From: Verrucomicrobiia bacterium
GTDB lineage: Bacteria; Patescibacteriota; Saccharimonadia; Saccharimonadales; JAGQNK01
Length of the DNA stretch: 64,000 nt
Assembly: GCA_035489575.1 (NCBI GenBank)
Contig: DATHJY010000004.1
Span: forward strand, 27,483 to 91,482
Direction: 5' to 3'
Positions 2,262 to 38,337 of this stretch are shown here, piece by piece (within the stretch, counting starts at the first letter, position 1; each line of letters starts with the position of its first letter). Both the position numbers and the translations under genes were made by a program. Below the pieces are notes generated by a model, which had not been told where the DNA came from, searched no databases, and worked only from the letters and a program-made list of their open reading frames with translations.

Positions 2262-3905
2262 ATGGCAAAGAAGGTATTTTATGACGAAGACGCCCGCAAG
2301 CGGGTGTTGGGCGGGGCGCAGATTTTATATAACGCCGTAAAGACCACTATGGGTCCAAAGGGACGCAATGTAGTGATCAGCAAGGGCTACGGCAGCCCTA
2401 CGGTCACACACGACGGTGTCACAGTGGCCAAGGGTGTGGACATTGCTGATGTCGACGACGAAACGCTGGGCTACAAGGTGGGTGCTGAACTGATCAAGCA
2501 AGCTGCTAACAAGATGAACGACGTAGCCGGTGACGGTACTACTACCGTGACCGTGTTGACCTATCACATCCTGAACGAAGCCAACAAGCTGATTGCTGCT
2601 GGCCACAACCCCATGTTGCTACGCAAGGGGCTAGAAGCTGCTGCTCAGGAAGTTATTGCCAAATTGGGTGGCATGGCTGAAGACATCAAGGCCAACAAAA
2701 AGCGTGTGGCCGAGGTGGCTACTATCTCTGCTGGCGATGCTCAGATTGGCGACTTGATTGCTGGTGTTATCGACAAAGTTGGTAAAGAAGGTGTGGTTAC
2801 TGTCGAAGAGGGCCAGGGCCTAGACCTAGAGAGCGAAGTAGTCGAAGGCTTTACTTTTGATAAAGGTTTTGTCAGTGCTTATATGGTGACTGATGCTACC
2901 CGCATGGAAGCCGTATCTGATAAACCCGCCGTGGTTATCACTGACAAAAAGATTACCTCTATCCAAGAGTTTCTCCCCTTGCTGGAAAAGCTGGCTGCGG
3001 CGGGCAAAAAAGAATTGGTCCTGATTGCCGAAGACGTCGAGGGCGAGGCCCTGGGTACTTTTGTACTGAACAAGCTGAAGGGCGTGTTCAATACCGTGGC
3101 TATCAAGGCACCTTCTTTTGGTGATCGCCGCAAAGACATATTGAATGATATTGCTATCCTGACCGGTGCCGAAGTAATTACTGAAGACCGGGGCATGACA
3201 TTCGAAAACGTCGAGCTAGACGTAGTGGGTTCGGCCCGCAAAGTGATTGTGACCAAGGACGAAACGACTATCATCGAAGGTGGTGGTTCGGTTGCTGAAG
3301 TAACTGCTCGGATCAAACAGATCGCCCAGCAAGCGGCTGCCGCAACCAGTGAGTACGACAAAGAGCACCTAGACAAGCGCCGGGCCGCTTTGTCTGGCAA
3401 GGTAGCTGTCATCAAAGTTGGTGGCGCTACCGAGACCGAGATAGAAGAAAAGAAATTCCGCGTAGACGACGCTGTTGCCGCCGTGAAAGCTGCTATGGAT
3501 GAAGGCATTGTGCCCGGTGGTGGTGTAACGCTGGTTAACCTGACCACGGCTGTCACGATTACTGGCGACGATGAATCTGTCAAAGCGGGCAAGGAACTGC
3601 TGAAGCGGGCTCTCGAGCAACCCTTTAGGATTCTGCTGAGTAACTCTGGCCTGAACGCCGATGAGTGGCTGCCGCAGGTCAAGGCTGCCAAGGCCGGCCA
3701 GGGTGTGAACGTTAATAGCCCCACCAAGTTGGTTGACCTAAAGGCTGCTGGCATCGTAGACCCAGCCCGGGTAACCAAAGAGGCTGTGTTGAACGCTGTA
3801 TCTATTGCTGGCACCAGCATGACTATGGGTGCGTTGGTAGTGGATGTGCCCGAAAAAGAGACTCCTGATGCTGGTGGTGGGATGCCTGGGATGATGGGAA
3901 TGTAA
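2262..3905 (+). CDS. groEL: chaperonin GroEL
   Basis: 547-aa product starting MAKKVFYDEDAR, with the AGDGTTTVTVL motif and a GGM-type C-terminal tail (GGGMPGMMGM). Confidence 0.98.
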   Translation: MAKKVFYDEDARKRVLGGAQILYNAVKTTMGPKGRNVVISKGYGSPTVTHDGVTVAKGVDIADVDDETLGYKVGAELIKQAANKMNDVAGDGTTTVTVLTYHILNEANKLIAAGHNPMLLRKGLEAAAQEVIAKLGGMAEDIKANKKRVAEVATISAGDAQIGDLIAGVIDKVGKEGVVTVEEGQGLDLESEVVEGFTFDKGFVSAYMVTDATRMEAVSDKPAVVITDKKITSIQEFLPLLEKLAAAGKKELVLIAEDVEGEALGTFVLNKLKGVFNTVAIKAPSFGDRRKDILNDIAILTGAEVITEDRGMTFENVELDVVGSARKVIVTKDETTIIEGGGSVAEVTARIKQIAQQAAAATSEYDKEHLDKRRAALSGKVAVIKVGGATETEIEEKKFRVDDAVAAVKAAMDEGIVPGGGVTLVNLTTAVTITGDDESVKAGKELLKRALEQPFRILLSNSGLNADEWLPQVKAAKAGQGVNVNSPTKLVDLKAAGIVDPARVTKEAVLNAVSIAGTSMTMGALVVDVPEKETPDAGGGMPGMMGM

Positions 3906-3988
3906 GGTAATGAGAGACCCCGGGCGGGTCTCTCGTCGCGCGGGAAAATGTGCTCCATTTTCTCCGGCTGCTCTTCCTGGAAGCTGTC

Positions 3989-4027
3989 AAAATATCCTCG
4001 AAGTAAATTCGAGGATATTTTGTTTTT
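3989..4027 (+). terminator. rho-independent terminator of groES-groEL
   Basis: Perfect 14-bp stem AAAATATCCTCGAA (3989-4002) / TTCGAGGATATTTT (4008-4021), loop GTAAA, followed by a T-run. An additional 9-bp GC hairpin sits at 3912-3934, directly after the stop. Confidence 0.8.
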
Positions 4028-4127
4028 ATTTAACTAGCTGCAGGATGGGGGTTGTGTATTTTTATTTAATTGGCTGGGGGATAGTGGTTGTGGTTGCCTA
4101 ATTTTTTCGGGGTGGCATACTTGGCGT

Positions 4128-8801: not shown

Positions 8802-8872
8802 CTCTAAAAATTACACTGCTATGTCTATAATGATGGTAGTATATACCATAACCAGAAAGAGAGGGAAGGGGA

Positions 8873-9033
8873 GAACCCATTTTATGTCCTCCCTCCAGCC
8901 TCAAACTATTCTGGTGGCACCCTTTGCCAGTTTTGCTTGTCGGTGTACTGCCGGTACGCCTTCGCACAAAACTGGCAAACTGCACTCACCACGATAGCTT
9001 TCGCTTAACAGAAGGAGGATATAAAATGGGTTC
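8873..9033 (+). promoter_or_regulatory. structured 5' leader RNA, copy 1 (RBS/start-sequestering; unassigned class)
   Basis: 20-bp closing helix 8873-8892 / 9014-9033 (one G-U) that contains the SD GGAGGA (9014-9019) and the ATG (9026). Inner 13-bp helix 8923-8935 / 8967-8979 and hairpin 8942-8960. Homologous to 26742-26904, with compensatory changes. Confidence 0.55.
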
Positions 9034-10087
9034 TGTGAGTTCCGCACTTGACGATCTAAAATACATTCATGAGCGTGATGCGCATGATGCTCTGGGGGTG
9101 GCGGAAAAGCAATGGCAGCAATTGCAGCAGGATTATGACCTTGGTGATTGGCAACCTTCACAGACGGTAGCTAATATTGTCCACTCGGGTATGGGCGGAT
9201 CAGCACTGTGGGCGCTTCTGAGCACCAGCTGGCCTGGCTACTCTGTACCGTTTGAAGTAGTCAGGGGCTACGATGTGCCCGCTTACGTAAACGAACACAC
9301 ACTGTTTATTGCCTCTAGCTATTCCGGCAATACCGAGGAAACACTGTCCGCACTCGCCCAGGCCGAAGAGAAAAAGGCGCAGATTGTTATTATCACATCT
9401 GGCGGCAAGCTAGCCGAGATTGCCACGCAAAAGAATTACCTGCTTATTGCACTGCCCAAAATTGATAAACCGCGATACGGGGCACTCTACGGCCTCAAGG
9501 GGATTGTAGCCTTGGCCGAGAAATTGCAACTGGCTGTCCAGCCCAATGCAACCGCCACCCTGAGCCAAGCGGCAGATTTCTTGCAAAACGAAATTACCCA
9601 GTGGGTGCCCATTGTTCCGGCTGCCAAGAACCAGGCCAAACAGCTGGCCCAAGAGCTTATGGGTAAGTCACCGGTTATGTATGGTGGTCCCTTGCTGGCC
9701 CAGGCAGCTCACAAGTGGAAGATCAGTTTTAACGAAAATGCCCAAAACGTCGCCTGGGAATATGCCTTTCCTGAGTTTAATCACAATGAATTTACGGGTT
9801 GGACATCTCACCCCGTTGATAAACCCTACGGAGTTATCTATTTGCGTTCCTCGTATGACAATGATCGTATCAAGAAGCGATTCGACCTGAGTGACAAACT
9901 GCTCAGCGGTCGCTGGCCGTCGCCTTTGCAGGTAGAGGCTAAGGGCGAAACACCCCTGCAGCAACTGCTGTGGACCGTTGCGCTTGGAGACTTTGTGAGT
10001 TTGTATCTGGCGCTGCTCAACGGTGTGAACCCCATTGAGGTTGGTGACAAAGATATCATTGAGCGCTTCAAGAGGGAGCTGGCATGA
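9026..10087 (+). CDS. bifunctional phosphoglucose/phosphomannose isomerase family (SIS domain) protein
   Basis: Start set at ATG 9026 (GAAGGAGGA upstream). SIS-type motifs GMGGSA and SYSGNTEET, with a PGI/PMI-type C-terminal half. The upstream part of ORF 8924-10087 is the leader RNA. Confidence 0.8.
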   Translation: MGSVSSALDDLKYIHERDAHDALGVAEKQWQQLQQDYDLGDWQPSQTVANIVHSGMGGSALWALLSTSWPGYSVPFEVVRGYDVPAYVNEHTLFIASSYSGNTEETLSALAQAEEKKAQIVIITSGGKLAEIATQKNYLLIALPKIDKPRYGALYGLKGIVALAEKLQLAVQPNATATLSQAADFLQNEITQWVPIVPAAKNQAKQLAQELMGKSPVMYGGPLLAQAAHKWKISFNENAQNVAWEYAFPEFNHNEFTGWTSHPVDKPYGVIYLRSSYDNDRIKKRFDLSDKLLSGRWPSPLQVEAKGETPLQQLLWTVALGDFVSLYLALLNGVNPIEVGDKDIIERFKRELA

Positions 10088-14527: not shown

Positions 14528-16195
14528 ATGAAGCTGGACTTACAAGACGCCGTAGAAGTGGCGAGCAAAGAAGTGTTCGGTGTCGACGTGCAGGTGGTTC
14601 TGACACGGCCGGACGAACAATTTGGTGACTATGCCACCAATGTGGCTTTGCAATTGGCCAACAAGCTCAAGAAGAACCCGCGAGAAGTTGCCGAGGCTCT
14701 GGCTGACTATTTGCGCAAAAAACTGGAAACAACAGTCAGCGACATAGCGGTGGCCGGCCCGGGCTTTCTGAACTTTCGCCTGCAAGACAGCGGTTTGTGG
14801 CAGCTGGCCGAGACGCCACCAGCAAAGCGCCTGGCTGGCCAGAAGATTGTGGCCGAGTATTCTGACCCTAACCCTTTTAAGGTGCTACATGCCGGACACC
14901 TGTATACCAGTGTGGTAGGTGATGCTGTTGCTAATTTGTTAGAGCAGGCCGGGGCGGCAGTGCACCGTGTCAATTTTGGTGGTGATGTTGGACTGCACGT
15001 GGGCAGATCTATGTGGGCTATCGTGGGACGGCTGGACGGCGAACACCCCGAGAAACTGAATGATGTACCAGAGGACAAGCGGGCTGAATGGATGGCCGAG
15101 GCTTATGTGCAGGGAACCCAGGAGTACGAAGAGAGCCAGTTTGCCAAACAGGAGATCATCAAGCTGAATAAGCGAGTGTATCAGCTGCATACTGACAACG
15201 ACCACCAGTCGCCTTTTGCACAAATCTATTGGACGACCCGGCAGTGGAGCTATGACTATTTTGATAAGTTTTATGATCGTATTGGGAGTCACTTCGAACG
15301 CTACTATCCAGAGAGCACTGTTTCTACTATTGGCCTAGAGACTGTAAGGGGTCACATTGGCCAAGTATTTGAAGAGTCCAAGGGCGCCATTGTGTTCAAG
15401 GGCGAAAAATTTGGTCTGCACACGCGAGTATTTATCAATTCCGAAGGCATCCCCACCTACGAGGCCAAGGATGTTGGGCTGATTATGCAAAAATGGGAAG
15501 ACTATCACTTTGATCGCTCTGTGGTGATCACAGGTAATGAGCAGTTGCAATACATGGAGGTTGTCCTAAAAGCAGTAGAGCAGTTTGCGCCAGCCTTGGC
15601 CCAGGGCACCACCCATATGACGCATGGCATGGTAAAGATGAAGGGCGGGGTAAAGATGAGCTCACGCAAGGGCAACATCTTGCGCGCAGTCGAAGTGCTC
15701 GATGCGGCTGCCGTGGCCAATAAAACCCTTACCGGTAACGAGGACGAGCAGGTGGTGCTAGCCGCCGTTAAGTACGCTTTTCTCAAGCAGCGCCTGGGCG
15801 GTGACATTATCTATGACCCAGAAGAGTCGGTGGCTATCGAGGGCAATTCTGGCCCCTATATCCAGTATGCCCATGCCCGGGCTCGGAGCATCTTGGCTAA
15901 GGTCAAAGATCAGTCGACCGCTCACGATGGGCCGCTGGAAGCCGATGAGCGCAGTCTGCTGCGAAAAATCAGTGAATACCCAGAGGTCACCCAGAAGGCT
16001 ACGGACGAGCTCATGCCGCATCATATCTGTACCTACTTGTATGAATTGGCCCAGACCTTTAACCGATTTTATGAAAAAAACCGGGTGCTGGATGATCCGC
16101 GCCAGGCTATTCGTCTGCAGCTGGTCAGTGACTACGCAAAGACACTTAAAAATGGCCTGAGCCTACTCAGTATCGACGCTCCCAGCAAAATGTAG
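14528..16195 (+). CDS. argS: arginine--tRNA ligase
   Basis: 555 aa with a class I HIGH-type motif (LHAGHLYT), the KMSSRKG variant of KMSKS, and an ArgRS-type N- and C-terminus ending in M. Confidence 0.95.
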   Translation: MKLDLQDAVEVASKEVFGVDVQVVLTRPDEQFGDYATNVALQLANKLKKNPREVAEALADYLRKKLETTVSDIAVAGPGFLNFRLQDSGLWQLAETPPAKRLAGQKIVAEYSDPNPFKVLHAGHLYTSVVGDAVANLLEQAGAAVHRVNFGGDVGLHVGRSMWAIVGRLDGEHPEKLNDVPEDKRAEWMAEAYVQGTQEYEESQFAKQEIIKLNKRVYQLHTDNDHQSPFAQIYWTTRQWSYDYFDKFYDRIGSHFERYYPESTVSTIGLETVRGHIGQVFEESKGAIVFKGEKFGLHTRVFINSEGIPTYEAKDVGLIMQKWEDYHFDRSVVITGNEQLQYMEVVLKAVEQFAPALAQGTTHMTHGMVKMKGGVKMSSRKGNILRAVEVLDAAAVANKTLTGNEDEQVVLAAVKYAFLKQRLGGDIIYDPEESVAIEGNSGPYIQYAHARARSILAKVKDQSTAHDGPLEADERSLLRKISEYPEVTQKATDELMPHHICTYLYELAQTFNRFYEKNRVLDDPRQAIRLQLVSDYAKTLKNGLSLLSIDAPSKM

Positions 16196-16197
16196 GA

Positions 16198-17007
16198 CTA
16201 CCAAACATCCGGATCATCATCACTTGGCTTGGCGAATGGCATTGGTGCTTCGCCAGGGTCTCCGGCAAGTACGGGGTTATTCTGAGGCCTTTCATATGTA
16301 GGGTGTTCATCTTGGTACAGTGACTCCACGGAAATGTCTGTATCACCAGCCTCATTGGTTTGCTGTGTGAATACCGCAGGGGCTTCGTCCCAGGAAAGGA
16401 AGGTAACCTCGGGGTGGCGCTCGCGGAGGATATCGAGCGTTGAGGCATACTCTTCACCGGTCACTACGTATGAAATGCCATCAGCTGCGAGCTTTTTGTC
16501 CTTTTCGGCAACCACAATGAATCCTCCCGAGGTAAGTGGCCTGTCGGCACCTACTGCGCTCCCATTTTCTGGGTCATCGATAAATCCCATTGAATAAAGC
16601 ATGGGTTTGTCTGGATCGATCCCTCCTGTCAGCAGCCTATCAAGCGCTACTACGGGGTCGTATTTGTTGGCTATGCCGTGAGCGTCATAGTGTGTACCTA
16701 CTTCTGAGGGTGTGTGGGTCAGTGCCCAGCCCAGGCCCTCGCCACCGGCGTGTACGGGTAGGTGTCCTAGCCCAAGCTCTTCCCCCACCTGTCGCAGTGT
16801 ATCTACTCTTGCAAACCCAATGGCTGCTAATTCAGGATCGGCATAGCTTGTTTCTTGTTGCCAGTCTGGGTACTGTCTATTTAAGTCCTCTACGGTAAAT
16901 TGTTCCACCGTGTCATAGGTGGGGATGGGAACGGGCTTATCAAGTAAATCCTCAGCCCCCTCGGCGGGACCGAGGTCAGTTGGGTTAGGGTGTGGGCCTT
17001 CAATCAT
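16198..17007 (-). CDS. hypothetical acidic protein
   Basis: 269-aa ORF with its own promoter at 17044-17072. No family recognised. Confidence 0.5.
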   Translation of the reverse strand: MIEGPHPNPTDLGPAEGAEDLLDKPVPIPTYDTVEQFTVEDLNRQYPDWQQETSYADPELAAIGFARVDTLRQVGEELGLGHLPVHAGGEGLGWALTHTPSEVGTHYDAHGIANKYDPVVALDRLLTGGIDPDKPMLYSMGFIDDPENGSAVGADRPLTSGGFIVVAEKDKKLAADGISYVVTGEEYASTLDILRERHPEVTFLSWDEAPAVFTQQTNEAGDTDISVESLYQDEHPTYERPQNNPVLAGDPGEAPMPFAKPSDDDPDVW

Positions 17008-17043
17008 TTTTTTATTTCGCGCTGCGCTGCATTTAGTAATTTT

Positions 17044-17072
17044 ATATTAGCACAAATATATTAAAAAGTCAA
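17044..17072 (-). promoter_or_regulatory. sigma70-type promoter
   Basis: On the reverse strand: TTGACT (17072-17067), 17 nt, TAATAT (17049-17044). Nearly identical over ~29 nt to the promoter at 20410-20438. Confidence 0.5.
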
Positions 17073-17148
17073 TTATCGCTCTCTGTATGTCCCGCTTGTG
17101 AGCGAGGGGGTGTACAATCAATGTACGCGGTTTTAGAAGGAGTATCAC

Positions 17149-20882: not shown

Positions 20883-21038
20883 GATTTCCTCCTTCCAGAA
20901 AATGTTGTATGGAGCTACCTTACGCTCATCATAGGGCGGGGGATAGTGTATTTTTTGACAACACCAGCGCATATAAGCATACATATTTTTTAACTTTAAG
21001 CACTATTTGGCGGGACAAGATTACCTCTGTTCAGCGTA

Positions 21039-21067
21039 TTGACTTTTAGTCAAAAAAATGCTAGTAT
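21039..21067 (+). promoter_or_regulatory. sigma70-type promoter
   Basis: TTGACT (21039-21044), 17 nt, TAGTAT (21062-21067). The ORF-track start at 21039 is this -35 box. Confidence 0.5.
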
Positions 21068-21092
21068 TGTAAAAGATAAACCAAAAAACAAA

Positions 21093-22514
21093 ATGAACGC
21101 AGAATCAGCAGCATCACCCCAAGAAACAAACATCGAATCGCATGATGCATTTGACCAGGCCCTGCATGGGTTGGCGGCTGAGCTGCCAGAACTGGCCGAC
21201 GCAGAAGAGCAGATCTCTGACTATGGGGCAGAGCTTATTACTGATCTGGGCATCCGCCCAGAACTTTTTGAAGAAAAGGCGCACACCGTTTTCTTTGCCG
21301 CCCTGGCACAACGCTCGGCTGGGCTGGAAGACAGAAGGCCTGGCATGTCTGTGGCCGACTATATGGCCGAGAAAGAATTTATCACCGATGCTGTCTTGTT
21401 GTTGGCCCGGGACAAGTCGGACTACTACGATCAGACTAAAGATCTTATAAATAGTGAAGAGGATGAGCACCCCAATGAAAAAAGCGTGTACGATCGTTAC
21501 ACGAACGTACAGGTGAGCCAGGAGCTACAAGAGGCAATTGATACCGGAGGTTTACTGGACGCGGTGAAGTCCCGGCTGAGTATTACTGCGGACACAGAAG
21601 ACGAATTTGAGGTGCGTGTTCTAAATGTGGCCAGCGACTACGCACTGTCTGGCATGCGACCAGCTGCACCTCCAGAGTTAGAGGGCAAGCCTTACAATGC
21701 GCCAGAGTGGCAGGCCTGGGATGCGGACAAGCAGGCCTCGGCACAATACCACGCCGACATGAAACAAAAGGGTGATGCCTTTGCGAAAGAATTGGGCTTT
21801 GGTGAACTTGGCCTGGCCTGGGCCACTACCATAGACGACAAAAAGACTCTGGTTGTCCCGTTGCCGGTAGCCGAGAAGATCATGTACCGCAATGAAGGGC
21901 GAGCGAGCTACTACGCTGAAGATGCATGGGAGCGAGACTTTGCTATCCTGGAGCATGAATATACGCATACGCAGGGTGGACTAAACCTGGACAGCGGAGT
22001 GGTCTATGGCATTGGTGCCGAAGAGCTGCGGGCTGAACATTTCTCTGGCGACAAGAACGGATATATGGATATTAAGGGCTTCTTTATTGACCTGCGGATT
22101 GTGACTGGCCTGGACGTGAAGCCTTATTTCGACCGGCAGCCAAAAGGCGGGGACGCTGGGGAGTTTTACACTATGGTGGCACAAGAGTTGGGCTTGCAGA
22201 ATACGCTAGAGCTCGCGCTGACTACCCCAAAAGGCTACGTCAGCGATAGCCGGAAACTGCAACAACATGCCGCACAACATCTAGGTGGTCTCGACGGCTT
22301 GACGGAGCGGCTCTATAACCAGGCGCTGGAAGATCCAGGAAGAACCGAGAAAATGGACGAACGCCTCGAGAGGGCAGCCCAAATAGGCGCAAAAGGATCG
22401 TCATTTGAAGGGTGGGCAGCTTACCGCAAAGACAGTCTTGATCTAAAGTTTATAACCGAAAAAATCGAAGAGCGCGTGGCGCGTACTCGGACCCAGGAAA
22501 AGATCGCCGCCTAG
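21093..22514 (+). CDS. hypothetical protein with HExxH motif (putative zinc metallopeptidase)
   Basis: ATG at 21093 downstream of the promoter. A single HEYTH motif (FAILEHEYTHTQGG); no other family signature recognised. Confidence 0.5.
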   Translation: MNAESAASPQETNIESHDAFDQALHGLAAELPELADAEEQISDYGAELITDLGIRPELFEEKAHTVFFAALAQRSAGLEDRRPGMSVADYMAEKEFITDAVLLLARDKSDYYDQTKDLINSEEDEHPNEKSVYDRYTNVQVSQELQEAIDTGGLLDAVKSRLSITADTEDEFEVRVLNVASDYALSGMRPAAPPELEGKPYNAPEWQAWDADKQASAQYHADMKQKGDAFAKELGFGELGLAWATTIDDKKTLVVPLPVAEKIMYRNEGRASYYAEDAWERDFAILEHEYTHTQGGLNLDSGVVYGIGAEELRAEHFSGDKNGYMDIKGFFIDLRIVTGLDVKPYFDRQPKGGDAGEFYTMVAQELGLQNTLELALTTPKGYVSDSRKLQQHAAQHLGGLDGLTERLYNQALEDPGRTEKMDERLERAAQIGAKGSSFEGWAAYRKDSLDLKFITEKIEERVARTRTQEKIAA

Positions 22515-22515
22515 G

Positions 22516-25870: not shown

Positions 25871-26461
25871 CTATTCTGGGGCGACGCCTATGAGTAGGCT
25901 GGCGTTTTTGTATTGGGTGGAGAGCGTTGCTTTTAGTTTTGTGTTGGTTGTGAGGTCGTAGGTGGATTTGACGCTTTTTTGGTAGGCGACTAGTTCGTCT
26001 TGGAGCTCTTTTAGAAAGACTTCGTCAAAGCGGTTGTTTTGTTGGGCGTTGGTGAAAAGCTGGTCGGTTTTGGCGTTCTTGCCGCCGTTCAGGAGCTTGC
26101 TAGGGGTTTTTACTTTTTGGCTGTTCAGCGTTGACTTAAGAGACGATAGATCGCTAGTTATGCTGAGGCTGGTGGTCCTGGCGAGGTTTTTGGCATTGTC
26201 GTCGCGTGATTGTTTTAGCCCGACTTCTGCAACGCGGATTAGCTCGGTTTGCTGCTGAACGACTTTAACCAGTTGCTCTTTGTTGTCGGGCGCGCCTGCA
26301 AATAGAACCATGTAGATAATAAATGGGACAAGCAAAACGGCCAGACCTATTATGGCGTATATGAACATCTTGTTTGATGACCCGCTCTTGATCGAGAACT
26401 TGGGTTTGGGGCCGTTCGGAGAGCCCATAATAAAATCGTACTGGTTTTGCTGTTGCTGCAT
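25871..26461 (-). CDS. membrane-anchored hypothetical protein
   Basis: Q-rich N-terminus, a single TM (MFIYAIIGLAVLLVPFIIYMVLF) and a polar extracytoplasmic domain. An extended -10 (TGGTACAAT) lies just upstream on the reverse strand. Confidence 0.55.
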   Translation of the reverse strand: MQQQQNQYDFIMGSPNGPKPKFSIKSGSSNKMFIYAIIGLAVLLVPFIIYMVLFAGAPDNKEQLVKVVQQQTELIRVAEVGLKQSRDDNAKNLARTTSLSITSDLSSLKSTLNSQKVKTPSKLLNGGKNAKTDQLFTNAQQNNRFDEVFLKELQDELVAYQKSVKSTYDLTTNTKLKATLSTQYKNASLLIGVAPE

Positions 26462-26498
26462 TACTTGTTATTGTACCAGCCCCACGGCCTATAGTCCG

Positions 26499-26646
26499 CG
26501 CAAAACAAAACCTGTGAATTTAGGGTGATGATCCAAGTGAGCTAGAACTGTTTGGGCCGAGTGAGGCGTATCCATTGATACGGTGAGCGAGGCATGGGCA
26601 GTTCTGGCCGCTTGGGCACAGCCTAAAACGCAGGTTTTGTTTTGTG
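26499..26646 (+). ncRNA. candidate rod-shaped structured RNA (6S-like architecture; unassigned)
   Basis: 18-bp closing helix 26499-26516 / 26629-26646 with two G-U pairs that work only on the + strand. Further helices follow (TTTAGG/CCTAAA, AGAACTG/CAGTTCT), then two ~16-nt unpaired strands around a terminal 6-bp hairpin CGTATC-CATT-GATACG. Confidence 0.3.
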
Positions 26647-26741
26647 GGGGCTATGCGCACCGCATTAGCTCTTTGGAGCGAGGGTCATGTCAGAGTGCTT
26701 ATGCTATGACGTTTGCCAGAGAAGCTATACTCTAAGAGAGT

Positions 26742-26904
26742 GAAGCTACCTTATGTCTCCCCTCCAGCCTCAGCACACTCTGGCGGTGCCCTTCGCCAGT
26801 TTTGCTTGTCAGCGTACCTACGGGTACGCTTCCGCACAAGAACTGACAAATGGCACTCACCAGAGTATTCTTCACTTAACAGAGAGAAGACATAAGGTAG
26901 CTTC
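26742..26904 (+). promoter_or_regulatory. structured 5' leader RNA, copy 2 (upstream of dnaG)
   Basis: Perfect 17-bp closing helix 26742-26758 / 26888-26904, ending 2 nt before the dnaG ATG. Hairpin 26811-26830. Aligns with 8873-9033 throughout. Confidence 0.55.
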
Positions 26905-26905
26905 T

Positions 26906-28648
26906 ATGGACGCTGTCGAAGAGGTTAAAAGCCGGTTGGCTATAGAGGACGTGTTGGGTGAATACATGACCCTCAAGCGCTCGGGTCGTAACTATAAAGG
27001 CCTCAGTCCTTTTACGGCCGAAAAATCCGCTAGCTTCATGGTTAGTCCAGAAAAACAGATCTGGCATGACTTCAGTAGTGGCAAGGGCGGGGACATGATC
27101 AGTTTTGTCATGGAGGTGGAGGGATTGGACTTCAAGGCAACCTTAGAGCTGTTGGCTCGTAAGGCCGGCGTAGACCTGAGCCAGTACCAAACCGGGCGAA
27201 ATGCTGACACGTCCAAACTAAAAGAGCGTCTGTATGAAGCGCACGAGCTGGCTACTAAGTTTTATCAAACGCAGTTCACTCGTAACCAGGGTGCTTTGCG
27301 ATACGTGCTGGAAAAGCGAGCTTTTAGCAAAAAGGTGGTGTTGGCTTTTCGTCTTGGTTATTCGCCCAATAACGGCACGGCGCTCATGGATTTTATGAAA
27401 AAAAAGGGCTTTAGCGAGGACGAACTGCAAAAGGCCGGGCTGGCCACCAAGCGCTACCGCGGCCTGGGCGATATGTTTCGTGGACGGCTGCAGATTCCCC
27501 TCATGGATGCGCAAGGCAGGGTGGTGGGCTTTACGGCTCGCTTGCTCGAGGACATACCGAATGCCCCCAAATACCTGAACACGCCCCAGACAGTACTGTA
27601 TGACAAGGGCCGGCATGTCTATGGACTGCATCTTGCAAAAGAAGGTATCCGCAAGAATGGCTATGTGGTGGTAGCCGAGGGCAACCTGGATGTTATCGCC
27701 AGCCACCAGGCAGATATCACGCAAGTGGTAGCCACGGCCGGTACGGCTCTGACAGAGATGCACCTGAAGGCCCTCAATCGTTTTACGGGCGATATCCGGC
27801 TGGCTTTTGACCAGGACCGTGCGGGGTTGGCTGCCACTGAACGCGCCATTCCCATTGCCAGCAAAGTGGGTGTGACACTGAGTATGATCACCATTCCGGA
27901 AGGCAAAGACCCAGACGAGCTGGTCAAGAAAGACCCTGACGCCTGGCGCAAAGTTATAGAAAATCACCAGTATGCGGTGGACTGGCTTATTGAACGTATC
28001 GGTGGCCAACTTGACCTAGAGAGTGCAGTGGGCAAGCGCCAGTTCAGCGATGTGGTTCTGCGGGTGGTTCGGCAGCTACCAGACCAGGTAGAGCAAGATC
28101 ATTACCTAGGGGTACTGGCCAAGCACATTGGTGCCAGTAAGCAAGCTCTAGAGCGCAAACTACAGGGGGGCGAGGAGCCAAGGACTCGTCTAAAAGCCAT
28201 CAAAGCCGACATAAAAATGGACAAGCAGGCCATTGATCAACTGAAGACCCAAAACCAGCTGCTGTGCCTCACGCTCATGCAGCCCGCTGTCCGTCATTAC
28301 CTGAAGCCGATTACCTACGACATGTTGTCAGACGAGTCGGCTCACCAATTGCTGCGCTTCTTGCAGGACAACCCACAGTTTGCGGGGGATCCCAAAGAGA
28401 GCGAGGCATTGAGAGATATTGCAGATTATGTTAAAATCCTAAGTCTACAGTTCGATGAATTATATCGACAACACGAGCTATTGGAGCTTCGTAACGAAGC
28501 CGCTCGGTTGCAAGAAAAGCTGATAAAACAATACGTTCACGACAAAAAACAGCCTCTGATCGAAGCCATGCGTACCGCAAACGAATCAGAGTCGCAAAAA
28601 CTACTCGAGCAAGCAAAAGAACTCGATAATCTACTTAAAAAGTTATAA
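26906..28648 (+). CDS. dnaG: DNA primase
   Basis: Start set at ATG 26906 ([21 protein letters not shown] is a typical primase N-terminus). Zinc-ribbon region, TOPRIM motif ([10 protein letters not shown]) and a DxD region. The 51 upstream codons in the ORF track are the leader RNA. Confidence 0.93.
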
Positions 28649-28662
28649 GAGGCATACTATTT

Positions 28663-29847
28663 ATGGTGAAGAAAAAAGCTACCCCAAAGGTTACTACCAG
28701 AGCTACTGCAAACGCTACAACCAAGGCTGACGCAAAGAAAACGACCCCTGTTGATCCAGAGTTGGTCAAGGCTCAGAAAGAGCTTCTGGCAAAGGCCAAA
28801 AAGGACGGCAAGATAGCTCAGCGAGATATCTTTGCTGCTATTCCAGATACGGCGGCAAATGCCGAAGTTCTAGATGAGTTATACACCGAGTTGGCAGACG
28901 CCAACTTACAGGTGACTGAACCAGGCACGCCAACCGCGGCCCTGACCGATGATTGGGCGCCTGAGGGCGATGAAGAGGAAGAAGTAATACTGAGTGAGCA
29001 AGTGTACCTAGACGACATTGCCGATGACTCAGTACGTTTGTACCTGCGTGAAATTGGTAAAATTCCACTGCTGAACGCCGAAGAAGAACTAGCCCTGGCC
29101 CAAAAAGTAGTCGCTGGTGACAAGCGCGCCAAGGACAAGATGGCTGAGGCCAACATGCGCCTGGTTGTGTCTATTGCCAAGCGCTATGTGGGCCGCGGTC
29201 TAGACTTGTTGGACCTGATCCAAGAAGGCAACACTGGCCTGCTACGTGCGGTTGAAAAGTTTGACCCAGATAAAGGGTTCAAATTCAGTACCTACGCCAC
29301 CTGGTGGATTCGCCAGGCTATTACCCGTGCTATTGCCGACCAAGCCCGTACTATTCGTATCCCCGTGCACATGGTAGAGACCATCAACAAATTGTTGCGT
29401 ACCCAGCGTCGCCTGACCCAAGAATACAACCGCGAGCCTACCAACGAAGAGATCGCCAAGGCTATGGAAATCGACGTGGACAAGGTAGAGCACATCATGA
29501 AGATCAAGCAAGATATATCTAGTCTGGACGCCAGTGTGCGTGACGATGAAGAAGACTCGGTACTGGCAGACTTTATCGAAGACGAAGACACCATCAGTCC
29601 CGAAGAATCAGCTACCAACCAGTTGCTGAAAGAACACGTCAAAGACATGTTGGGCAGTCTTACTGAACGTGAACAAAAGATCTTGAAGCTGCGCTTTGGT
29701 CTAGAGGATGGCAAGAGCCATACCCTAGAAGAAGTTGGCCAAGAATTCAGCGTCACCCGTGAACGCATCCGCCAGATAGAAGCCAAGGCTCTGGCCAAAC
29801 TGCGTAAGCACAAAGACAGCAAAAAACTCCACGACTACATTAAGTAG
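28663..29847 (+). CDS. rpoD: RNA polymerase sigma factor, primary (sigma-70)
   Basis: Regions 1.2-4 are recognisable: [37 protein letters not shown], and region 4.2 [21 protein letters not shown]. Confidence 0.95.
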
Positions 29848-34878: not shown

Positions 34879-35907
34879 ATGGGCAAGCTCACAAAAGTCG
34901 CCAAGATTGGCCTTTGCTCCCTGGCAGCACTGTTTGGACTGGTGCTGCTGGGGTTGAGCTTGCCGCTAAGAGGCGGACAGGCGCTGTCCATTCAAACTGG
35001 CAGCATGGAGCCGAGGCTCTCGCCCGGTGATGCGGTGTTTGTGAAACGTGTTCCTGTATCTGCGTTGCAGGTCGGGGATATTGTCACATACATTAGTCCG
35101 GCTCATCCCGAACAAACCACTACACACCGCATAGTTGATATAGCCGGTCCGGTCGGTCGGCCCACCTATCTAACTTTGAAGGGTGATGCTAACCGGACGG
35201 CAGATGCCCCCGTGTCACCCTACGCGGTTGTGGGCAAGCAGGTGGCGTCTGTGCCGTACCTGGGAAGGGTATTGGACTTTCTGCGCTCGTGGGCTGGCAT
35301 AACGTTGTTTGTGTATATGCCGGCGCTGGCGGTTGTTTTGGTAGAGGTGCGAAAATTGGTGGCCTACTACCGCAGTATGGAGCCCTATGTTTTGCCAGAA
35401 ATTCTAGCCCGGCGCAAAAAGAAGTCGACGCATCTTGTTCGTAATGCGCTGGCGGTTATGATGATGGTTGTCATTGGCAGTGTGACCGTGGCGCTACCAG
35501 TAACAGCGGCCCTAAAAGCCACAGCCACCATGACAGGCAATACTATCGCGACGGCCACACTTCCACCGCCACCCTCGGCGGTAGGCGGTCTAGCCCTGCG
35601 ACGGGTGTTTGTGGCCTGTACCTCAGAAGATCGCACAAAGGCAGACCATCTGAATATTATTCTGTATAACGCCGGCAAGACAGACTTGAATATAACAGGG
35701 TGGTACTTGCAGTCTGGAGCTACCAAGTTTTATACCTTTGCGGCAACTACCGTGTCTCATCGATCAACATTTGATTTTGCTACCCCTGTACCGCCAGGTG
35801 TCAGTTACGATAGCGGCTCGGTCAAGCTGTACAACGCTGCTGGCCAGCTGGTGGACACATCGTCGTGGAGTCACAACCCCACTGGTCGTCCTTGCCGCAT
35901 ATTGTAA
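34879..35907 (+). CDS. signal peptidase I (SipW/archaeal S26B type) fused to a second signal-peptide-like segment and a lamin-tail-like (LTD) domain
   Basis: Residues 1-165 carry GSMEP (Ser), THRI (His) and KGDAN. Residues ~167-225 read like a complete preprotein N-terminus (MEPYVLPEILARRKKKSTHLVRNALAVMMMVVIGSVTVALPVTAALKATATMTGNTIAT). The C-terminus has LTD-like NIILYNAGKTDLNITGWYL ... VKLYNAAGQLVD. Confidence 0.7.
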   Translation: MGKLTKVAKIGLCSLAALFGLVLLGLSLPLRGGQALSIQTGSMEPRLSPGDAVFVKRVPVSALQVGDIVTYISPAHPEQTTTHRIVDIAGPVGRPTYLTLKGDANRTADAPVSPYAVVGKQVASVPYLGRVLDFLRSWAGITLFVYMPALAVVLVEVRKLVAYYRSMEPYVLPEILARRKKKSTHLVRNALAVMMMVVIGSVTVALPVTAALKATATMTGNTIATATLPPPPSAVGGLALRRVFVACTSEDRTKADHLNIILYNAGKTDLNITGWYLQSGATKFYTFAATTVSHRSTFDFATPVPPGVSYDSGSVKLYNAAGQLVDTSSWSHNPTGRPCRIL

Positions 35908-35938
35908 AAAATTACAAAAGTGGCATAATCTATTGATC

Positions 35939-36709
35939 ATGATCGGTCAACTTACAGAAACAGCCCCTGGAATATATGTCCCAGACGTGCACGACGATAT
36001 AGTTGTTGCGCATAGCGACAGGCGAAACGGCAATATAGATCCACGCTTTGTAGAAGGAGACGAGTGGACTGAAGCCCGTCAGCGTCTGTTCGAGCAAGCC
36101 GGTTTGCATGCCGGCCAGGTTGCCGTTATTGGTTTTGCCAAGGGCCGAGGTCCCAGCAATGAATTTGTAGATTTGGGAGATGCCGAACCGCCCGAGAGGC
36201 CAGTGGTTACAGACGGATTGGTAACAACCCGACCAGGCGTAGGCCTGATGCTCAACCCCGCAGACTGCCTAGCCTTGGCCCTATATCATTCTGATAGACA
36301 GGTACTTATGTTGGCTCATTTAGGATGGCGCGGTATAAAGCTGGGGCTGCATACCAATATGTTGGAGTATGCCGCAGGTGAGTATGATGTGGATACGGAA
36401 CAGGCGGCAGTATACTTCAGCCCCTCGATTGGTCCGCGGTCTTATGTGGCGCCGGATGTTGACGAAGACCAGCGGAACGACCCCAAGTGGGAGGCGTTTA
36501 TCGACGAGCAAACAGATGGCTTTCATCTAGATTTTCCTGGATACGTAAAGCGGGATCTAGGCGAAGACTTTGGTATAACCCAGATCCACGACTCGGGTAT
36601 AGATGTAGGCGCAGATCCTCACCACTTCTCGTTTACGCGGCTTAAGGACGGAACCCAGGACGTCAACGGCCGCAACGGCTTTGTGGTGGCTATACGACCT
36701 GCCGTCTAG
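35939..36709 (+). CDS. YfiH/PgeF (laccase-domain, DUF152) family protein
   Basis: ATG at 35939. Motif NPADCLALALYH.....LMLAHLGWRG matches the family signature aDC.P......HAGWRG. Confidence 0.7.
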   Translation: MIGQLTETAPGIYVPDVHDDIVVAHSDRRNGNIDPRFVEGDEWTEARQRLFEQAGLHAGQVAVIGFAKGRGPSNEFVDLGDAEPPERPVVTDGLVTTRPGVGLMLNPADCLALALYHSDRQVLMLAHLGWRGIKLGLHTNMLEYAAGEYDVDTEQAAVYFSPSIGPRSYVAPDVDEDQRNDPKWEAFIDEQTDGFHLDFPGYVKRDLGEDFGITQIHDSGIDVGADPHHFSFTRLKDGTQDVNGRNGFVVAIRPAV

Positions 36710-38173: not shown

Positions 38174-38337
38174 AGAGCCTGTTCCAGATCTCCAATTCCG
38201 CCCCAAAACCGCCCATTCCGGTAACAATCCGCCCTGGTTTCTGAGCCGTAACTATGGTTACGCCTCAAAACCCAGAACGAATTCTTTCTCGAAATGGATC
38301 GATTTTGGGATCGGAAGCGAGATCTGGAACAGGCTCT
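38174..38337. repeat. long inverted repeat enclosing ~90-125 nt (MITE-like element or large RNA stem)
   Basis: Perfect 19-nt arms AGAGCCTGTTCCAGATCTC (38174-38192) / GAGATCTGGAACAGGCTCT (38319-38337). Pairing extends inward (TTCCG/CGGAA, CCCAAAA/TTTTGGG). Confidence 0.5.

Follow-up and report, generated by a model that had tools for sequence, protein, structure and literature searches.

The 165-nt palindromic element that abuts dnaG in the 64-kb window (the whole stretch of DNA that was analysed) is best explained as belonging to a new family of palindromic repeats that are mobile, and not as a dedicated regulator of dnaG–rpoD, a reading to which we assign a probability of roughly 0.7. The family would comprise previously undescribed, non-autonomous repeats of ~165 nt in Saccharimonadia (Saccharibacteria/TM7), similar in kind to MITEs, REPINs, ERIC and Correia elements. 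A first-pass annotation had proposed structured-RNA control of the primase and primary sigma factor operon. This proposal is unsupported, because the element is absent before dnaG in the relatives examined, occurs in dispersed copies, is gained and lost between genomes, and carries its structural signal on the strand antisense to dnaG.

Nine palindromic copies of 163–191 nt, eight of them 163–170 nt long, were collected in at least four genomes from the ~400 kb of Saccharibacteria DNA examined (Table 1). A covariance model (R1) was built from three copies, and further members were obtained using R1 and pattern scans; R1 scores of the dispersed homologues ranged from 37 to 203 bits. The best matches of DnaG and phosphoglucose isomerase (PGI) were from Saccharibacteria/Saccharimonadales, as was the gene order; the NCBI label is Verrucomicrobiae, which probably reflects wrong labelling or binning of the MAG.

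Table 1 Copies of the repeat and other features of the loci analysed. Coordinates without a locus name refer to the window
Feature	Location	Strand	Context and support
A_dnaG, palindromic element	26741..26905	- (better-folding R strand)	Fold; R1 202.6 bits; absent from sister contig
5′ arm of A_dnaG, 17-bp perfect closing helix	26742..26758	+	Includes ATG 26753, the start of the spurious long ORF
3′ arm of A_dnaG closing helix	26888..26904	+	Covers AAGG (26893-26896); dnaG ATG 1 nt further
Promoter-like CTGACA-17-TATTCT in 3′ half of A_dnaG	26843..26871	+	9/12 consensus positions
TATACT, -10-like hexamer	26726..26731	+	Block conserved with L026, where dnaG ATG is 8 nt downstream
Spurious 51-codon N-terminal extension of dnaG ORF	26753..26905	+	Non-coding
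dnaG (DNA primase, 580 aa)	26906..28648	+	Pfam; homologues
rpoD (primary sigma-70-type factor)	28663..29847	+	Begins 14 nt after dnaG
A_pgi (163 nt)	8872..9034	-	Between divergent hypothetical gene and PGI/PMI gene; -81.3 kcal/mol, z = -8.0
Copy B (164-nt rod hairpin)	26491..26654	+ (R strand)	Same intergenic region as A_dnaG; -106 kcal/mol, z = -10.3
Copy C (164 nt)	38174..38337	-	Diverged member, intergenic; R1 42.5 bits
A_L005	L005 1414-1576		Ends at stop codon of tilS (opposite strand); R1 185 bits
A_L013	L013 1196-1360		Between divergent yajQ and pheS; yajQ ATG inside one arm; R1 137 bits
L021 copy	L021 10302-10492		Between convergent argS and hypothetical gene; R1 81 bits
Copy D	L024 8953-9122		Same genome, ~4 kb beyond window, upstream of rpsT; R1 37.7 bits
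Copy E	L026 14096-14259		Sister genome only; R1 46 bits

The element before dnaG and the start of the primase

The ends of A_dnaG were set by the homology of its termini. The first-pass annotation had described it as a second structured copy before dnaG, and the element is indeed homologous to A_pgi (78% over the first 76 nt; 84% mean column identity) and abuts the gene. The description of a 17-bp closing helix whose 3′ strand lies over AAGG holds as well: the 17 nt of complementarity are perfect, against a chance expectation of 0.09 matches, the pairing of the arms reaches ~23 nt once wobble is allowed, and AAGG would be sequestered if the whole element were transcribed. The dnaG mRNA would carry the complement of the better-folding strand (the R strand). 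For the mRNA strand, a rod-like structure of -75.5 kcal/mol (z = -6.7) was predicted from a 181-nt stretch, and none of 200 shuffles was equally stable. The rod-like hairpin reported further upstream is also real and corresponds to copy B. In a folding scan of the whole window, the repeat elements were among the strongest structural outliers. Another strongly structured segment lies just downstream of groEL (3871-4095) and contains tandem 36-nt direct repeats (4023-4058 and 4059-4094) that are 78% identical. Searches against Rfam 15 gave no match at the gathering threshold on either strand of the window, including any tRNA or other known RNA gene, and none for 26300-27000 even at E < 10.

The long ORF 26753-28648 begins inside the element, as the ORF coordinates confirm, and its apparent primase N-terminal extension is the element read in frame. 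Among the DnaG homologues, all 120 that were listed match only 91–93% of the long ORF, apart from one short sequence with 80%. MDAVEE or MDVVEE was found at the start of, or within, all eight DnaG homologue sequences that were read, and residue 53 of the long ORF is the first of the Pfam zinc-ribbon domain. Homologue N-termini, coverage and domain position thus agree with the earlier assignment of the primase start to ATG 26906. The NCBI primase record (P0001) has 580 aa; a 631-aa call that includes the extension (P0241) is on record in JGI/Logan/ENA annotations. The extension had been judged not to be protein, and this is borne out by its lack in homologues, by stops in the matching frame of copies c1 and L013, which leave no conserved ORF, and by the missing sequence in the sister genome. 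A small leader peptide or uORF was rejected on the same stops; c1 additionally has two 1-nt deletions that are symmetrical in the hairpin and leave the frame unrestored. No matches were returned by a composite six-frame 'protein' query for spurious ORFs over the other copies.

Intergenic DNA before dnaG is 444 nt long in the window. It is 132 nt in the closest available relative (L026, contig SRR33471251_71, the sister contig; DnaG at least 90% identical in amino acids and in the same 90% cluster), 62 nt by gene coordinates only in the P0002 contig (DnaG 87%), ~97 nt in L001, L002 and L003 (72–74%), 104 nt in L041 (76%) and 100 nt in L042 and L043 (76%). The element was absent upstream of dnaG in every relative examined, and R1 with filters off detected no significant copy there in L001-L003, L026 and L041-L043. 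Overall nucleotide identity between the window and the sister contig is ~83%, and 70–86% across the comparison. Against this contig the window has two insertions, B and A_dnaG, in an otherwise recognisable intergenic region; B, the diverged spacer and A_dnaG form a single gap of 414 nt versus 69 nt (26491-26905).

The first-pass statement that no good promoter lies close to the element is doubtful, since TATACT ends a ~40-nt block that is nearly identical in the window and the sister contig. The dnaG start lies 6–11 nt behind a -10-like hexamer in the relatives, and a promoter-like pair (TTGCTA-17-GATACT) ends 6–8 nt before the dnaG ATG in L001, L002 and L041. The -10-like sites fall within L001 2950-3003, L002 2960-3003, L041 9960-10003 and L026 9960-10003. 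Because the hexamer is only 6–8 nt before the ATG in relatives, the sequences suggest that dnaG–rpoD mRNAs are leaderless or near-leaderless in this clade. In the window, the element is inserted between TATACT and the dnaG ATG. If transcription starts just after TATACT, the whole rod would become the 5′ UTR and the AAGG region would be buried. A transcript from the promoter-like site inside the element, if that site is active, would be without the 5′ arm and could have a short unstructured leader; the scan for this motif gave two sites versus 0.6 ± 0.9 in shuffles, which is not significant. Any effect of the element on dnaG–rpoD expression is probably incidental.

Dispersed copies, their gain and loss, and the neighbouring genes

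Copies differ strongly in sequence within one genome, and the genes adjoining them (PGI, dnaG, rpsT, pheS/yajQ, tilS and argS) share no common theme. Termini are recognisably homologous in five copies at non-orthologous sites (~TGAACTCATTKCATA...TATGMAATGAGTTCA), and the terminal helices are perfect over 15–22 bp. The most conserved segment across subfamilies is an apical stem-loop, ~GCGTAnCC-nnnn-GnTACG on the R strand. B and A_dnaG have only this apical hairpin in common and are convergent on their folded strands; the size and shape of B are family-like. The ~64 kb of L001-L003 and L041-L043 contained no copies. A metagenome scan with the 5′-half pattern gave one true and three chance matches, and a genome scan with the 3′-half pattern gave one true and 11 chance matches. 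Each collection-wide scan thus added one new copy, which points either to a modest copy number or to overly strict patterns. Two pattern scans of viral contigs gave chance matches or none, BLAST against phages and plasmids gave no match, and a limited literature search found no MITEs in Saccharibacteria. Another rod-like hairpin of ~130 nt lies between convergent genes at L041 9157-9285 (-69.9 kcal/mol, z = -5.8); its R1 match is weak (16.7 bits) and its apex is different. Long intergenic hairpins seem to be common in the Saccharibacteria genomes examined.

Comparison with the sister genome revealed turnover in both directions. All four copies of the window are missing at the orthologous site of the sister, where A_pgi has left a 34-nt remnant. 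In blastn alignments A_pgi corresponds to 162 versus 34 nt and C to 169 versus 9 nt, and E forms the reciprocal 160-nt gap, with a copy in the sister and none in the window. The next PGI relative (85% aa, gene coordinates only) has 79 nt of intergenic DNA before the gene. The empty site of B in the sister reads GGCCTACGCAC, compared with GGCCT[B]GCGCAC at the filled site; at ~83% identity the empty sites are imperfectly clean. No direct repeats flank any of the nine copies, no target-site duplication was found by empty-site comparison, and a common target motif sought among the copies was not found. The window, its specific genes included, encodes no transposase and no RAYT homologue, and no partner with matching ends was found in the window or the loci compared. 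Blocks of 0.8–1.5 kb at 16194-17108, 21000-22515 and 35894-36699 have no counterpart in the sister contig; of the ORFs in these blocks, only ORF 35738-36709 matched Pfam, through a Cu-oxidase_4 domain.

Both ends of the element carry an outward SD-like run and ATG because the closing helix is palindromic (for example, GGGAGGTATGAAATGAGTTCA). This arrangement occurs at each end of the five copies with homologous termini; A_dnaG has lost its ATG. In L013 the terminal ATG is the yajQ start, giving MSSAAQSSFDIV. A_pgi lies directly before the bifunctional phosphoglucose/phosphomannose isomerase gene, and its terminal arm holds the SD GGAGGA and ATG 9026. The PGI N-terminus has an MSS or VSS extension in the clade of the window, L020 and P0122, and MLDDLK in all other homologues. 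In this clade (9018-9043 of the window and L020 660-700), PGI begins MSS/VSS(S/A)LDDL, and the extra codons and SD match the element terminus GATATGAATGAGTTCA, which is kept by the remnant in L020. The start region in the window contains two tandem 9-mers, ATGGGTTCT and GTGAGTTCC, with candidate starts at 9026 and 9036. Judged from these sequences, it appears that PGI acquired its start codon from the repeat. Donation of translation starts by the element is thus indicated by the yajQ ATG and the PGI N-terminal extension. A co-oriented gene start follows within ~250 nt on the R strand in six of nine copies; neither strand of the L005 and L021 copies is followed by one. Given these gene starts and the use of terminal SD-ATG at PGI and yajQ, some copies are at least co-opted.

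The folded strand and alternative readings

On the mRNA-sense strand, the four type-A copies share 51 consensus pairs, and 24 of these show double compensatory change. None of 500 shuffles reached 24 and slid controls reached at most 4, and the hairpin is therefore considered to be under selection. The R strand folds better in all eight homologous copies (R versus mRNA strand: -104.6 versus -75.5 kcal/mol for A_dnaG, -87.2 versus -55.4 for A_L005 and -110.8 versus -79.4 for C). RNAalifold predicted a nearly continuous rod for this strand, with -96.6 kcal/mol and compensatory change in 35 of its 69 pairs. Mismatches were counted by aligning arm 1 to the reverse complement of arm 2, with wobble ignored when the register was set. 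The R-strand arms showed 66 G·T versus 21 A·C mismatches, or 54 versus 21 with B left out, because its orientation had been set by the same mismatch criterion; the p-value is indicative only, as the copies have common ancestry, and the direction is uniform. The R strand of the dnaG copy is the minus strand, and the selected single-stranded form is thus the strand antisense to dnaG. Around the dnaG copy, this strand showed no promoter-like site. From these two features we infer that the asymmetry reflects a propagating single-stranded form (ssDNA or RNA) and not a function at the dnaG locus.

Alternatively, the elements could be dedicated leaders that act in cis, as a riboswitch or a protein-binding RNA, and bring PGI/PMI and dnaG–rpoD under one signal by sequestering the ribosome-binding site. 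The two type-A copies of the window have their ends at a start codon or a few nucleotides from it, in the orientation of the gene, with an SD-like sequence in the 3′ arm, and the closing helix of the mRNA strand pairs anti-SD-like CCUCC/UCUC with the SD-like region at the start codon, as in RBS-sequestering leaders. Covariation is strong, the internal loops CCCTCCAGCCTCA / TTCGCTTAACAGA of the mRNA strand are apparently invariant in four copies, and a terminator-like alternative hairpin (CTGGCGGTGCCCTTCGCCAG-TTTTGCTTGT) exists in both copies. However, these 'conserved loops' are largely a G·U-containing helix on the opposite, better-folding strand, whose fold is the selected one. In contrast to a leader, the element is not conserved at orthologous genes, as seen before dnaG in all relatives examined, in the remnant before PGI of the closest relative and in the short intergenic DNA of the next one. 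Homologues downstream of tilS and between convergent genes have no gene start to regulate, the adjoining genes lack a common theme, and no Rfam family matches. The comparative data largely refute such a leader, and we regard it as very unlikely. Domestication of a copy that is mobile by origin deserves more weight and is still unlikely. The rod would then be transcribed from the TATACT promoter and would set the dnaG–rpoD level by sequestration or RNase III cleavage. With a conserved -10-like hexamer on one side of the element and the dnaG ATG on the other, read-through transcription is likely, the mRNA strand still folds stably with its perfect 17-bp helix, real start sites are provided by the termini of other copies, and Correia elements supply promoters and RNase III sites (PMC2649163, PMC10969869). 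Yet there are no signs of selection specific to this site, the insertion is found in one lineage only, the promoter-like site 26843-26871 could bypass the helix, and the constraints suggested by the strand asymmetry have nothing to do with the dnaG mRNA.

Two further readings place the function in RNA. Independently transcribed, rod-like small RNAs of ~165 nt on the R strand, either 6S-like or dsRNA/RNase III substrates with a function in trans, would agree with the G·U-specific asymmetry, the near-continuous rod on one strand, the uniform length of eight copies and the conserved apical hairpin. We consider them highly improbable: copies come and go between related genomes, unlike housekeeping RNAs, those within one genome differ strongly, the R strand around the dnaG copy has no promoter-like site, and Rfam gave no 6S or other match. 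6S RNA itself, a single conserved housekeeping gene whose rod has a large central bubble, was also rejected, because the elements occur in multiple divergent copies that vary between genomes and their R-strand rod is nearly continuous. There is an outside chance that the elements are mobile or independently expressed rod-like RNAs (SINE-like, viroid-like or dsRNA regulators) and not DNA transposons. The G·U asymmetry, the length of ~165 nt and the apical hairpin would in that case mark RNA as the functional or propagating form, and RNA-type elements would rewire translation starts in minimal Saccharibacteria genomes by providing SD-ATG cassettes for essential genes. Integron attC sites were considered, since GCTTAAC resembles RYYYAAC, and were rejected because the partner strand is not the complementary core site. 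Retron msd and bridge RNA were rejected as well, with no reverse transcriptase or recombinase gene adjacent.

Related repeats, proposed mechanism and implications

Correia elements and MITEs are non-coding, 100–200 bp long and bounded by terminal inverted repeats, and they donate expression signals (PMC2649163, PMC10969869). Correia repeat-enclosed elements (CREE) in particular form rods that are transcribed together with genes, to which they provide RNase III sites and expression signals (PMC2649163). By the criteria for MITEs (PMC10969869), the present elements are non-coding, shorter than 500 bp, bounded by terminal inverted repeats and dispersed with presence/absence polymorphism; flanking target-site duplications, a further criterion, were not observed in the nine copies and the empty sites compared, and such duplications fade with age (PMC10969869). 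An autonomous partner with the same ends, also expected for MITEs, was not found in the window or the loci compared. Like CREE in Neisseria and bacterial MITEs such as the ~190-bp QMITE2 of Coxiella, the elements are intergenic and often upstream of genes, vary in presence between related genomes and form long rods when transcribed. They differ in that target-site duplications (TA or other) and a partner IS were not found, in outer arms that covary instead of being constant, in having the apical hairpin and not the termini as the part conserved across subfamilies, and in termini that donate SD and ATG rather than (only) a promoter.

REPINs are REP doublets that form hairpins and are mobilised by RAYT Y1/HUH transposases. 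They leave no target duplications; the proposed mobile form is a single-stranded hairpin, and they would be maintained as populations inside a genome (PMC3116915, PMC3337134). The present elements resemble them as non-autonomous extragenic hairpin repeats, and the strand asymmetry would fit an ssDNA substrate. However, they are longer (~165 nt) and do not consist of two short REP units, and they have no sequence relation to REPINs or to Correia/CREE, the two kinds of repeat that they most resemble in how they work. L021 14540-15290 holds a gene for a 207-aa RAYT-like transposase of the Y1/HUH type (Pfam Y1_Tnp), with a REP-like palindrome (CTTTGCAAGG-AGAGA-CCTTGCAAAG) on both sides that is unrelated in sequence to the 165-nt elements; this locus looks like a REP–RAYT system in a Saccharibacteria genome. 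A REPIN–RAYT identity of the present family was rejected, as the window has no RAYT homologue and the RAYT-like gene is flanked by unrelated REPs.

ERIC and Rickettsia palindromic elements (RPE) are imperfect palindromes of ~100–150 bp that are co-transcribed with neighbouring genes, and RPEs can be read in frame as parts of proteins. The spurious 51-codon extension is comparable with such in-frame reading. However, no sequence similarity to ERIC or RPE exists, and the in-frame reading of the present element is an annotation artefact, since homologues start at MDAVEE. Both ERIC and RPE are named in PMC10969869.

Under the mobile-repeat explanation, the element would spread to new intergenic sites, and one copy would have been inserted between TATACT and the dnaG start codon, in an operon that was near-leaderless before. 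Compensatory change maintains the hairpin, whose fold may serve the propagation of the element itself through an ssDNA or RNA intermediate and an enzyme acting in trans, for which an HUH/Y1-type enzyme is only a guess. Any effect on dnaG would be a by-product, with AAGG sequestered in the 17-bp helix if transcription comes from upstream, or with a new promoter at 26843-26871 as the alternative. Against this explanation stand the lack of target-site duplications, of a transposase with matching ends and of perfectly clean empty sites, the low number of copies collected and the co-option of some of them; perfect helices of 15–22 bp despite ~20% divergence between copies could also reflect selection at each insertion site.

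The mobile-repeat explanation removes a tempting false positive, namely a riboswitch coupling replication and transcription capacity. It also warns of gene callers being misled, as by the 631-aa 'primase'. For the ultra-small Saccharibacteria (CPR), in which intergenic DNA is scarce, the results indicate that hairpin repeats turn over between related genomes, land at the start codons of essential genes such as dnaG–rpoD and rpsT, and can donate a ribosome-binding site and a start codon, as for PGI and yajQ. The strand asymmetry would provide a handle on how such elements propagate.
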